Positions 48,540 to 51,526 of a stretch of DNA of 64,000 nt are shown here, piece after piece; within the stretch, counting starts at the first letter, position 1; the number at the start of each line of letters is the position of its first letter. The stretch is taken from NCBI GenBank assembly GCA_017551515.1, contig JAFZLK010000022.1, positions 12,532 through 76,531 of the forward strand, written 5' to 3'. Position numbers and translations under genes: made by a program. The notes under the pieces were generated by a model. That model was not told where the DNA came from, ran no database searches, and saw nothing but the letters and a program-made list of their open reading frames with translations. Source of the stretch: Bacteroidales bacterium (GTDB taxonomy: Bacteria > Bacteroidota > Bacteroidia > Bacteroidales > ML635J-15).

Positions 48540-49313
48540 CTACTCTATCGGGAAATTAAAATATGTATCAGGATAAGGTTCGTTCTTGAGAACAAAATGC
48601 CACCATTCGGTGCTAATACCCCTGAATCCATGACGAACCATTGCATCGCGAAGAATCATGCGGTTACGGTGCTGTTCGGGAGTTACGCCGGGATAGTCGG
48701 GATGACTTTCTTCGCCTAGCCAATCGAATGGACTGCCCATGTCAACCTCCTTTTCGGTGCTCATATCGAAAAGTGTAAGGTCTACTGTAGAACCTGTTGT
48801 ATGACGGCTTTTCTTTGCAATATAACCTTCTTCGAAAAGACGAGGCTTGTCAATATCGGGATAGAAATAACGTTTCATAAGAGTGTCTGATGCCTCCTGC
48901 GACCAGCGAACAAAATGATCGACAGCGCTTTGCGGACGGTATGCATCATAAATTTTCAAGCGGTAGCCCATTGCCTTTACATCGTCGCTGACGGCCTTTA
49001 GACTGTCGGCAGCCTCTTTGGTAAGATATGCTATCGGTGCATTGTAACCATCAACGCGCACACCCATAAAGTTGAATGTGCTGAAATAACGTATTTCCAA
49101 AATTGCATCGGGAACGACATCAGTAACAACAACAAAACCATTCTTCGAAGCCTCGGAAACAGTTGTATCAGCAACAGGTTCAACCGATGCAGCTTCTTCA
49201 CTAACTACGTTTTTTTCCTCTGTAACGCTAGTATTTTCCTTGTTTTGGCACGAAAAAGCCATCATGCACATTGCCAGTGCAACAATTGCATAAAGTAAAC
49301 TTTTTTTATTCAT
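48540..49313 (-). CDS. D-Ala-D-Ala dipeptidase (M15D, VanX/DdpX-like) lipoprotein
   Basis: Lipobox-like FSC; IYDAYRPQ, SRH..G.TVDLT, DMGS.FD, EWWHF. Confidence 0.9.
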   Translation of the reverse strand: MNKKSLLYAIVALAMCMMAFSCQNKENTSVTEEKNVVSEEAASVEPVADTTVSEASKNGFVVVTDVVPDAILEIRYFSTFNFMGVRVDGYNAPIAYLTKEAADSLKAVSDDVKAMGYRLKIYDAYRPQSAVDHFVRWSQEASDTLMKRYFYPDIDKPRLFEEGYIAKKSRHTTGSTVDLTLFDMSTEKEVDMGSPFDWLGEESHPDYPGVTPEQHRNRMILRDAMVRHGFRGISTEWWHFVLKNEPYPDTYFNFPIE

Positions 49314-49375
49314 GACTGTTCGTTTTTGTTTGAGCGCAAAGATATTTCTTTATCTGCAAATAGAAAAAGAAAAAC

Positions 49376-49828
49376 TTATCTGCACAATCTTTCTATCAAT
49401 GCGCCATGCAGCGGAAACTCATGCAAAAGTTCTTCTTTTTTAGCCAGTTCGAAATTTTCAAATTTGAATGCGGGAGCCACAGCGCATCCCACGAGTGAAA
49501 AACCTTTCTTGCCAGACAGTTCTGCAGCGAACCACTGTTCAGGTTCAATTACAACCTGCATTTCGTCATCAGCGGACAAATGATGTACAATGAGTTCTCC
49601 CTTGGCATTAATAACATAAATATCAAGACATTCGCCAGCATGGTAGTACCAGATTTCGGACATACCGTGCAGCTTGTGGAAAGCCGAGAACTCATCTCCG
49701 CAAAGCATATAATATATGGTAGAGATTTGCTTTTCTCCACTCTCATCGTTCCCGTAAACCTGGCGATAATAGCCGCCTTCGGGATGTGGCACAAGGCTTA
49801 GTTTTTCAATATAATGCTTATAATCCAT
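49376..49828 (-). CDS. Cupin_5 (DUF985) protein
   Basis: L.PHPEGGYY, STIYY, EIWYYHAG, LVGCAVAPAF.F..FE. Confidence 0.9.
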   Translation of the reverse strand: MDYKHYIEKLSLVPHPEGGYYRQVYGNDESGEKQISTIYYMLCGDEFSAFHKLHGMSEIWYYHAGECLDIYVINAKGELIVHHLSADDEMQVVIEPEQWFAAELSGKKGFSLVGCAVAPAFKFENFELAKKEELLHEFPLHGALIERLCR

Positions 49829-49830
49829 AT

Positions 49831-50904
49831 TTATTTCCCATTTATCATCTTATACTGGCACATTTTCAACTCACCGTTTTCATCGCGGAGATGCATACCG
49901 TTGCCCTGACAAAAACGCCAGACCTTACACGACTTGCAGTCGCCCGTACGCATCCAGTTGCGATAGCGGAACTTCTCGAAACGATTTTCCCACACATCCC
50001 AGAACGAATCGGTGTATATGTTGCCCTGATTGTAGTCGCTACGTATGCTCAGGCAGCCCGAAATAGCCCCATCGGCACGGATGGAAGCAACATTAACGCC
50101 CGAACTGCAGTTGAAATACTTGCGTCTAACTTCTCCCTCATAGCGACCAAGAAAACCGTCGCAGGCATAACTTGCGTCAATTTTGCCTTCGAGACGAGTC
50201 AACTTTATAAAATCCATCATCTGCACAAATTCCTCGTTGCTCAGGCGCAATTCAGGATCATCCGCAGCCCGACCAGACGGGAAAACGCTGAACAACCGCC
50301 ACTTACGCACTCCGTTTTCTATCAGAAAATCGCGAAATTCAGGCAAATACTTTATTGTGCGCTTATTCACACAAGTGATAACATCCCACACTAACCCACT
50401 TTGCTTTTTCAATGCCTCAATCGCTCGCAGCGCATTGGCGAAACTATCACTATGTCCGCGCATCCAGTTGTGGTCATCGGCAAAACCATCGAGACTTATC
50501 GCAATGGAACGCAGACCATTACGCACAAGTTCAGTAAGTTTTTCATCGGTAAGCAACATGCCGTTTGTCACCATCCCCCAGATGAAGCCGTGCTCTGTGA
50601 TTGCGCGTCCACATTCAGCAATGTCGGCACGCACAAGCGGTTCGCCACCTGTAGTAATCACCATAATGTCATAAGGTGAAATGTGCGCTTTTATATCATC
50701 AAGCACTTTCAGAAAATCGTCGAGAGGCATGTCCTGCTGCTGCGAAACCATACGGCAATCGCTTCCACAATGACGGCAATTAAGGTTGCAACGCAGTGTA
50801 CATTCCCAGAAAAGTTGGTGAAGATGATGCTCATCGGCACGAAGCGAAAGCACTGCACGATTCAATTCGAGTGAAAGTCGCTTGTATAGGGAAAATTCCG
50901 ACAC
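49831..50904 (-). CDS. Radical SAM/SPASM maturase (TIGR04133-like rSAM/lipoprotein system)
   Basis: LFWECTLRCNLNCRHCGSDC, TGGEPL.R.D, WGMVTNG, SLDG, SPASM C..G.......DG...GC..GNI..C..C.....C; GTG start overlaps the upstream stop. Confidence 0.88.
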   Translation of the reverse strand: MSEFSLYKRLSLELNRAVLSLRADEHHLHQLFWECTLRCNLNCRHCGSDCRMVSQQQDMPLDDFLKVLDDIKAHISPYDIMVITTGGEPLVRADIAECGRAITEHGFIWGMVTNGMLLTDEKLTELVRNGLRSIAISLDGFADDHNWMRGHSDSFANALRAIEALKKQSGLVWDVITCVNKRTIKYLPEFRDFLIENGVRKWRLFSVFPSGRAADDPELRLSNEEFVQMMDFIKLTRLEGKIDASYACDGFLGRYEGEVRRKYFNCSSGVNVASIRADGAISGCLSIRSDYNQGNIYTDSFWDVWENRFEKFRYRNWMRTGDCKSCKVWRFCQGNGMHLRDENGELKMCQYKMINGK

Positions 50905-51461
50905 TACTGCTTGCTACTATTATTAATGTTGTAAATTTCTCTGTCGATTTTATCAATCTCGTTCTGAAGCGAATCACGACTTTCGCGCAAATTCTTGGTA
51001 CGATTGTTATACTTATTAATCATCTCTGGCGGACCATAAACCTTAGCCCCCGACCTAGCGTTAACAGTTTCATCTATAGCATCCAAGCGTTCCTTAAGAG
51101 AACTTTTTTCCGATTCGAGCATTTTCAGAAGTTCATTCTGCAACGAATCAGCCTCGTGACGCATCGCACGAGTTCTAGCGCTGTATTCCCTCATAACTTC
51201 GGGAGAACCATAAACGCACGACGTTTCACGATCTTTGATTGTAGCACGCAAACTCTCGAGGCGTGCCTGCAACTCAGCCCGTCTTGCATTTATCGAATCC
51301 TTGGGAACATACATCTCATCGTTTTCACCAAGATTGTCATTGTCGGCAGGTTGCGGTGCTGTCTCAGCACTTTCGGAAGTACGCTTTGTCGCTGTGCAGG
51401 CTGCCACTATTGCCGTAGCAAGCGCAAGTATAGAAATCCATGTTTTCTTTACTATTTTCAT
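50904..51461 (-). CDS. Lipoprotein with two 58-aa helical repeats each bearing VYG(S/P)PE; likely rSAM substrate
   Basis: Lipobox VAAC (Cys22); VYG at residues 83 and 141; DSLQNE at residues 105 and 163. Confidence 0.8.
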   Translation of the reverse strand: MKIVKKTWISILALATAIVAACTATKRTSESAETAPQPADNDNLGENDEMYVPKDSINARRAELQARLESLRATIKDRETSCVYGSPEVMREYSARTRAMRHEADSLQNELLKMLESEKSSLKERLDAIDETVNARSGAKVYGPPEMINKYNNRTKNLRESRDSLQNEIDKIDREIYNINNSSKQ

Positions 51462-51526
51462 GGTCGTGCGATATTATTACAAAGTGCAAAGATAATGGAA
51501 ATTACGATTCCTTCAATGGACAAATA

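Follow-up and report, generated by a model that had tools for sequence, protein, structure and literature searches.

The closest described counterpart of the locus reported here is the radical SAM/lipoprotein system that NCBIfam records, on computational grounds, as the enzyme family TIGR04133 and the lipoprotein family TIGR04134. The enzyme is encoded next to a co-oriented lipoprotein gene, and the usual TIGR04134 partner carries one or two Tyr-Gly-x-Pro motifs in the tether behind its lipid-anchored cysteine, followed by an immunoglobulin-like (Ig-like)/CarboxypepD_reg domain. A search of the literature returned no publication on the TIGR04133/TIGR04134 system or on the pairing of a splicease with a lipoprotein. 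We analysed a 64,000-nucleotide stretch of the genome of a rumen-type Bacteroidales bacterium (hereafter the window; NCBI GenBank assembly GCA_017551515.1, contig JAFZLK010000022.1, positions 12,532 to 76,531 of the forward strand), in which a full member of TIGR04133 is encoded directly behind a lipoprotein that likewise has Tyr-Gly-x-Pro after its lipid cysteine. Judging from the sequence comparisons set out below, the enzyme very probably rewrites the hairpin tips of this lipoprotein that carry Tyr-Gly-x-Pro. The window partner differs from the TIGR04134 type in being, as modelled, an all-helical three-helix coiled coil built from two 58-residue repeats, and in having a cupin gene appended to the pair.

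Two further groups of enzymes bear comparison. MftC, the mycofactocin maturase (TIGR03962), is likewise a SPASM enzyme; it starts its chemistry on tyrosine and acts on a C-terminal Tyr by decarboxylation, whereas both tyrosines in question in the window lipoprotein are internal. The spliceases (PlpX/PlpY/PlpA, PcpX, RhaX/RhaA) share with the window system a radical SAM/SPASM enzyme and an X-Tyr-Gly site with a variable X. As described in PMC11414181 and PMC10533398, characterised spliceases act at X-Tyr-Gly with X being M, L or an engineered G, while the Gly is required. Some of their substrates are multi-site, binary systems without a Y protein exist, and proteins as well as peptides are reported to be spliced. 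In contrast to these systems, the window locus has neither a Nif11/NHLP leader nor a Y protein, its enzyme reaches 131.5 bits against the cut-off of 725 of the PlpX family model (TIGR04103 / IPR026482), and its candidate substrate carries a general secretory (Sec)/lipoprotein signal and is modelled as a folded protein rather than as the core of a ribosomally synthesised and post-translationally modified peptide (RiPP).

A two-repeat lipoprotein beside a TIGR04133 enzyme

The locus comprises three minus-strand open reading frames (ORFs) packed head to tail, encoding the lipoprotein, then the radical SAM/SPASM enzyme and then a DUF985 cupin. The features of the first two genes are as follows.

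50904..51461, minus strand: lipoprotein gene, 185 amino acids, the proposed substrate (from the ORF list); its parts are a signal peptide, a low-complexity tether of about 30 residues and, in the AlphaFold2 model, three helices joined by two VYGxPE turns
51396..51461, minus strand: signal peptide and lipobox IVAAC, residues 1-22 (from the translation)
51198..51215, minus strand: motif 1, V83-Y84-G85-S86-P87-E88 (GTT TAT GGT TCT CCC GAA), at the first predicted hairpin turn
51024..51041, minus strand: motif 2, V141-Y142-G143-P144-P145-E146 (GTT TAT GGT CCG CCA GAG), at the second predicted hairpin turn
49831..50904, minus strand: radical SAM/SPASM enzyme gene, TIGR04133 by profile match, 357 amino acids, GTG start
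50767..50790, minus strand: radical SAM cluster motif C39-x3-C43-x2-C46 (CNLNCRHC; alignment A1)
49858..50163, minus strand: SPASM region with seven invariant cysteines, C248, C266, C284, C323, C326, C332 and C349 (PF13186 and alignment)

The TAG stop codon of the lipoprotein gene and the GTG start codon of the enzyme gene share one base (TAGTG), giving an overlap of 1 nucleotide (CAGTAGTGTCGG), and only 2 nucleotides separate the TAA of the enzyme gene from the ATG of the cupin gene (AAATAAATATGG). The genes, the lipobox, the two 58-residue repeats and these junctions had been described in an initial annotation made from the sequence, which proved accurate in every detail that could be checked.

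The N-terminus of the lipoprotein (MKIVKKTWISILALATAIVAAC) is a lipoprotein-type signal with the lipobox IVAAC, in which Cys22 is the lipid cysteine; W8, I9, A21 and C22 were nearly invariant in an alignment of 34 sequences. The dipeptide YG occurs exactly twice, at Tyr84 (VYGSPE) and Tyr142 (VYGPPE), 58 residues apart and 62 and 120 residues after the lipid cysteine, respectively. At the background frequency of the genome, about 0.04 Y-G-x(1-2)-P sites would be expected in a protein of 185 residues, compared with the 2 observed. When the two halves were superimposed at an offset of 58, 21 of the 58 residues were identical. When the mature part was shuffled 2000 times and offsets of 20 to 89 were allowed, a single shuffle scored as high. 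G85 and E88 were nearly invariant in the alignment of lipoprotein homologues (alignment A2). A cysteine (C82) stands at position −2 of motif 1, while K140 occupies this position in motif 2, which has no Cys nearby; the two motifs thus form a built-in comparison of the role of that cysteine.

An AlphaFold2 model of the lipoprotein, built with the 34-sequence alignment, had a mean predicted local distance difference test score (pLDDT) of 77.4, which was low only in the signal peptide and tether (residues 1-51), with block means of 91-96 across residues 61-180. Helices were predicted at residues 54-80, 87-136 and 145-182, and the two connecting turns, residues 81-86 (SCVYGS) and 137-144 (SGAKVYGP), hold the two motifs, as would be expected from the earlier suggestion that VYG might sit at hairpin tips. 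A fold search of the model against the PDB returned nothing at E ≤ 0.001, and generic helical bundles only (bMERB, CdvA and designed bundles).

The lipoprotein most likely faces the periplasm rather than the cell surface, since Cys22 is not followed by an acidic export signal: in the mature N-terminus, CTATKRTSES, neither Asp nor Glu occupies the export-signal positions, and homologues are similar behind the cysteine (TSTKRT, SSSKTT, CTSKGG). Surface lipoproteins of Bacteroides carry the signal CS(D/E)2 or S(D/E)3 right behind the lipid cysteine, and outer-membrane lipoproteins without it are expected to be periplasm-facing, according to the account in PMC6222051. The surface display put forward in the initial annotation is therefore not favoured.

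The assignment of the enzyme to TIGR04133, also anticipated there, agreed with the profile search: the score was 545.9 bits against a cut-off of 425, residues 7-354 being aligned to positions 2-349 of the 350 in the model, and a lipoprotein-type gene adjoins the enzyme gene upstream, as in other TIGR04133 systems. Matches in Pfam were PF04055 (1.4e-23) and the SPASM domain PF13186 (7.8e-8; residues 266-327). The cluster cysteines C39, C43 and C46 and the seven SPASM cysteines were invariant among the 11 family members of alignment A1, and the N-terminus MSEFSLYKRL aligned with the MS... starts of relatives. A predicted complex of the enzyme with lipoprotein residues 50-185, S-adenosylmethionine and three 4Fe-4S clusters scored 0.01, compared with a mark of 0.32, and is evidence neither for nor against an interaction.

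A second TIGR04133 enzyme (462.2 bits) is encoded on another contig of the same genome (C90:52339-53837, minus strand; locus L135:840-2338). In the lipoprotein encoded upstream of it, the lipid cysteine is directly followed by YGTP (...MQACYGTPNY...) and then by a β-rich region, and in the profile search this protein also fell short of TIGR04134. One genome holds two TIGR04133 systems with different partner types. TIGR04133 was found above its cut-off in 21 of 41 sampled relatives, with two or three copies in some genomes.

Tyr-Gly-x-Pro partners across TIGR04133 loci

Species genomes of GTDB were scanned with the 11-member alignment, yielding 584 relatives confirmed by tblastn, the best 80 of which were used as loci. 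Xylanibacter ruminicola and Phocaeicola species are among the carriers of canonical versions of the system. A partner was defined as an adjacent ORF on the same strand, within 400 nucleotides, that carries Y-G-x(1-2)-P. Such a partner was present in 72 of the 80 loci, which came from other genomes: 54 loci had it solely upstream, 14 solely downstream, and 4 had one on each side. A stricter lipobox filter, tried first, had given candidates in 59 of the 80. For comparison, the background in the host genome was 0.214 sites per 1000 amino acids, the motif being borne by 281 of 5210 ORFs of at least 100 amino acids. Partner ORFs with at least two motifs were found in 32 of the 72 motif-bearing loci, and at least two motif-bearing adjacent ORFs in 14 of the 80. 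The presence of two motifs in the window lipoprotein, highlighted at first as distinctive, was confirmed, but its unusualness had been overstated.

The partners supplied 124 sites, in which Y and G were fixed by the search pattern and the other positions were free. Proline occupied position +3 in 106 of them. Position −1 was mainly M (39), E (30), V (28), L (10) or I (5), and position +2 was nearly free, being mostly P, V, S or T, also A, C or Q, and Gly in 5 of the 124. The partner types were otherwise unrelated and included Ig-like/CarboxypepD_reg proteins (TIGR04134), peptides of 50-100 residues, long Lys/Glu-rich proteins and coiled coils. The context of the motif varied as well; it was found right behind the lipid cysteine, in tethers or at hairpin tips.

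Some of these loci deserve separate mention. In locus L040 (plus strand) two partner genes precede one enzyme gene: a two-module coiled-coil lipoprotein (L040:1873-2391) and a peptide of 73 amino acids (L040:2388-2609) with the tandem VLYGPPEVLYGPPS. Six downstream partners on the plus strand (L052:3948-4949, L053:4072-4908, L055:4030-4803, L097:4081-4761, L098:4089-4643 and L099:4191-4994) are proteins of 180-330 amino acids with a Lys/Glu-rich region and one or two (V/R/M)YG(P/A/V)P sites. They share a C-terminal domain (...SFGVQL.EEMM.QLNT.NRLA.FIVEVI...), and their enzymes cluster together in the tree described below. By eye this tail resembles an acyl-carrier-like helix bundle; the three Lys/Glu-rich partners examined had no Pfam match.

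The window lipoprotein gave no TIGR04134 match at E ≤ 0.01, only weak coiled-coil noise (cut-off 39.8 bits), whereas the model recognised four of seven other partners (L001, 106; L012, 104.6; L014, 40.5; L021, 40.3 bits). The view that it differs from the catalogued partner of these enzymes is thus upheld. It does have the lipoprotein signal, the Y-G-x-P after the cysteine and the TIGR04133 neighbour, features which were read from members of TIGR04134 and are not the curators' definition.

Its own family, that of the coiled-coil partners, is small. A word-indexed search yielded 64 homologues, all annotated as no more than 'hypothetical protein'. With HMMER over 1.84 billion cluster representatives, the number of matches fell from 100 at E ≤ 0.001 to 65 at E ≤ 1e-10 and 15 at E ≤ 1e-30. 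Conservation of YG among homologues had been set beforehand as a check on the substrate proposal, and 61 of the 65 representatives at E ≤ 1e-10 kept at least one YG.P. The four others were a variant with VYYGPSPEA, two truncated or aberrant entries and an unrelated coiled-coil protein of 1856 amino acids. The module occurs in 1-3 copies per protein, with the logo R-E-x-[AS]-C-[VIL]-Y-G-[SPT]-P-E-[VI]-[IM]-x-x-Y over 123 sites. Homologues lacking the radical SAM gene, another point raised at the outset, were looked for in 401 evenly drawn genomes of the order. The lipoprotein profile had 9 matches there, and all 8 with E ≤ 1e-12 were encoded directly upstream of a TIGR04133-type radical SAM enzyme; the ninth (5.3e-6), with no YG.P and no radical SAM gene nearby, looks like coiled-coil noise.

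In a tree of 99 enzyme rows, from which L009, L012, L013 and L021 had been left out as duplicate or truncated, the enzymes with coiled-coil partners formed one group of 18 rows with a Shimodaira-Hasegawa-like approximate likelihood ratio test (SH-aLRT) support of 94. This comes from a quick IQ-TREE search with SH-aLRT as the only support, and partner labels were set by regular expressions; the group takes in L037 and L038, which were labelled 'short' by that means and by eye have degenerate coiled-coil partners. It sits within a clade of 31 rows (support 98) that includes other non-canonical partner types. That these enzymes fall together in the tree implies that enzyme and partner type have diverged together. 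The novelty, on the evidence of these comparisons, appears to lie in the partner type: a small lipoprotein family, helical throughout and made of repeats, that falls outside TIGR04134 and goes with an enzyme subclade of its own.

That the lipoprotein is the substrate of the enzyme at Y-G-x-P is well supported by the sharing of the motif among unrelated partners and by its strict co-occurrence with the enzyme, and we regard this as highly probable. An opposing explanation is that the target of the enzyme is a small molecule or a different protein, while the lipoprotein serves as a chaperone, receptor or immunity factor and YGxP is a binding or structural turn. Y-G-x-P is a plausible turn former and does lie at turns in the AlphaFold2 model, and the link between enzyme and lipoprotein comes from comparing sequences, which weighs against the substrate assignment. 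So do the 8 loci of 80 without a motif-bearing neighbour by the rule: two of these lie at contig edges (L063, L092), in two the motif was overlooked (L078, with ACYGPYIPP, and L101, where the enzyme ORF was over-extended), and in L058, L064, L106 and L110 the scan found no motif ORF within reach. On the other hand, the motif is all that is kept in common by partners whose folds and sizes are unrelated, among them peptides of about 50-100 amino acids with little else in them, and it is kept in differing structural contexts. Moreover, the enzyme, an Fe-S protein of the cytoplasm, can encounter the exported lipoprotein only ahead of its export, a situation more in keeping with modification than with partnership. 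A role other than substrate is therefore considered very improbable.

Candidate chemistry at the motif

Tyramine excision, by analogy with the spliceases, is the reaction that we tentatively assign to the enzyme, at a probability slightly below even. The site anatomy, in which Tyr-Gly is fixed, the residue at −1 varies among hydrophobic and acidic ones and no second side chain is conserved, fits splicing better than a crosslink. The fixed Gly at +1 next to a freely varying +2 position, Gly included, counts against chemistry on the +2 side chain. A working splice tag derived from PlpA2, ...PLYGLPI, is itself a Y-G-x-P sequence (PMC10533398). TIGR04103 matched 10 of the 11 TIGR04133 family members at E ≤ 1e-20. 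The list of Scott et al. (2022), quoted in PMC10533398 as 27 characterised and 939 predicted splicease systems, may already include the TIGR04133 family.

Two crosslinking reactions were considered and discarded. A thioether crosslink from Cys to an acceptor does not serve as the universal reaction, there being no Cys near motif 2 or near most sites of the other partner types, and a three-residue cyclophane onto the +2 residue was rejected because this position is Gly in 5 of the 124 sites and otherwise unconstrained.

The main alternative keeps the lipoprotein as the substrate at Y-G-x-P and replaces tyramine excision by another radical modification of Tyr, such as epimerisation to D-Tyr, Cβ hydroxylation, α,β-dehydrogenation, a C-C, C-O or C-S crosslink of Tyr, or Cα/Cβ cleavage. 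SPASM enzymes are chemically very diverse according to PMC11002830, and the profiles nearest to the window enzyme include other chemistries, namely AhbD and NirJ (decarboxylation), PqqE and MftC (108-120 bits), the last of which carries out Tyr-directed oxidative decarboxylation and crosslinking. The cysteine at −2 in 58 of the 123 module sites, and that directly before Tyr in the ACYGTP partners, point the same way. Against such a reaction stands the lack of a conserved second residue that could act as a universal crosslink partner, the constant residues being Y, G and P(+3) only. Cysteine is missing around motif 2 and around most sites of the other partner types, and a small residue needed after Tyr together with a free residue before it is the anatomy of a splice site. 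A different Tyr modification is accordingly regarded as a possibility of some substance, though a doubtful one.

Several observations speak against tyramine splicing or parts of the scheme built on it. The best models for the window enzyme other than its own were AhbD (133.0 bits), TIGR04103 (131.5) and TIGR04053 (130.3), so that the score of the PlpX family is tied with those of AhbD and TIGR04053 and the profile scores show no splicease-specific likeness. The best E-values over the 11 family members were likewise close (AhbD, 8.4e-41; TIGR04053, 3.2e-39; TIGR04103, 1e-38). For the second enzyme of the genome, TIGR04103 ranked 8th (105.9 bits), and the MftC model gave 119.9 bits. NCBIfam release 20.0 (June 2026) keeps TIGR04133 as a 'hypoth_equivalog'. 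The spliceases described so far depend on an activating helix, supplied by a Y protein or by a leader (PMC11414181), and this operon has no Y-protein gene or extra small gene; in the AlphaFold2 model of the window lipoprotein helices flank both motifs, and in other partners the signal-peptide helix precedes the site. Given the frequent cysteine at −2 of the module sites, some of them may undergo a Cys-dependent reaction. Finally, the periplasmic orientation is deduced from the absence of a motif that was defined in Bacteroides and Capnocytophaga and not in the host organism.

The MftC model matched the window enzyme with 108 bits, below the cut-off of 265. A search of PDB sequences gave 11 distant radical SAM matches, the best being cytosylglucuronate decarboxylase (3.1e-15), and none of the 11 was named a splicease. 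Genes of the PlpX family above the TIGR04103 cut-off numbered 0 in 301 Bacteroidota genomes, sub-threshold relatives being present in 12 genomes; inspection of their neighbourhoods revealed no recognisable YG-rich precursor beside these PlpX-like genes. In two Bacteroidota genomes of another family, radical SAM enzymes of 474-484 amino acids (L111:1255-2679 and L112:1249-2703, minus strand) scored 418-424 bits with TIGR04103, and near each of them lies a conserved ORF of 58 amino acids starting with MGIMMPYGAA. These may be a separate peptide-modification unit.

Taking the observed family membership, gene coupling, motif conservation and strict co-occurrence together with the modelled position of the motifs at turns, we infer the following scheme for what would be a two-gene enzyme-substrate unit of the TIGR04133 system with an accessory cupin gene. 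The cytoplasmic radical SAM/SPASM enzyme would modify the precursor, with Tyr84 and Tyr142 as its putative targets, presumably before Sec export. Export, processing by signal peptidase II and lipidation at Cys22 would follow, and the protein would then fold into the predicted three-helix antiparallel coiled coil, with the two modified sites at the hairpin tips and probably facing the periplasm. In the case of splicease-type chemistry, each site would lose a tyramine equivalent, −135.06 Da (the value for splicing in PMC11626197), and Val83 and Val141 would become α-keto-β-valine, presenting an electrophilic ketoamide at each tip.

The product would then amount to a lipid-anchored, protein-sized 'spliceotide', a periplasmic bundle with two ketoamide tips, and TIGR04133 to a large Bacteroidota branch of the protein spliceases; as a whole this extended picture is unlikely. 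Ketoamide splice products are reported to inhibit serine and cysteine proteases (PMC11414181, PMC11626197, PMC10533398, PMC9811515). If the picture were true, the spliceotide could inhibit envelope proteases of the serine or cysteine class in a bivalent, reversible-covalent manner, taking an ecotin-like role, or else act as an electrophilic tether to envelope amines; protease inhibition by this lipoprotein, which had been suggested from the start, is purely conjectural. The TIGR04133 family would in that event install β-amino acids in exported lipoproteins before Sec transport. Splicing here would mean a natural installation of backbone β-amino acids in a folded, exported, membrane-anchored protein that is not a RiPP, and the envelope of dominant gut anaerobes would contain reactive ketoamides. 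A reaction other than splicing would amount to a new radical SAM protein modification. Gut and rumen Bacteroidales commonly encode TIGR04133 enzymes, and the comparison provides a candidate target residue, two sites and a mass shift. The coiled-coil partner would be a handy model substrate, being small, confidently predicted and equipped with two sites that have different flanks.

Transcription signals, cupin and downstream gene

The remaining features of the locus are as follows.

49376..49828, minus strand: Cupin_5 / DUF985 gene, 150 amino acids (PF06172)
51487..51494, minus strand: possible Bacteroidetes-type −7 promoter box, TATCTTTG, 26-33 nucleotides before the ATG of the lipoprotein gene (from the sequence pattern)

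The consensus of the Bacteroidetes-type −7 box is TAnnTTTG. After the box at 51487-51494, the next match on the same strand is at 49337-49344, ahead of the gene for an M15 dipeptidase, and a pattern scan of this strand of the window found no match between the lipoprotein, radical SAM and cupin genes. The spacing of the boxes fits a three-gene transcript of lipoprotein, enzyme and cupin. It is a weak pointer, because the 77 TAnnTTTG matches in the window hardly exceed the 63.15 expected.

The cupin matched PF06172 with 122 bits (2.4e-35; gathering threshold 25), residues 5-129 being aligned to positions 2-139 of the 139 in the model. The Cupin_5 signature (HPEGG and two aromatic residues) was present in 7 of 102 TIGR04133 loci, all of them the closest relatives of the window; the seven include the window itself, and L009 and L031 are apparently the same sequence. 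No cupin was found in the other coiled-coil-type loci with a readable downstream flank (L005, L011, L013). Because of this narrow distribution among the closest relatives, the cupin is more likely a lineage-specific neighbour, a bystander or recent add-on, than a core tailoring enzyme. Of the two possibilities originally left open for it, tailoring and bystander, it is thus the latter that gained ground. A dedicated tailoring role, for instance on the modified residue or on a released by-product, would agree with the start of the gene 2 nucleotides past the enzyme stop codon without a −7-like box between them, and with its being kept in that position in the closest relatives (L004, L006, L008, L009, L010, L031 and L122-L124). 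Besides the low count of loci, some of which are near-duplicate rows, the cupin is cytoplasmic and has no signal peptide, so that it could act only before export. We consider such a role decidedly unlikely.

Just downstream of the cupin gene, at 48540-49313 of the window (minus strand), lies a gene for a lipoprotein-type D-Ala-D-Ala dipeptidase (Peptidase_M15, 3.1e-42). The TAnnTTTG match at 49337-49344 given above belongs to this gene, whose place is conserved in the closest relatives.

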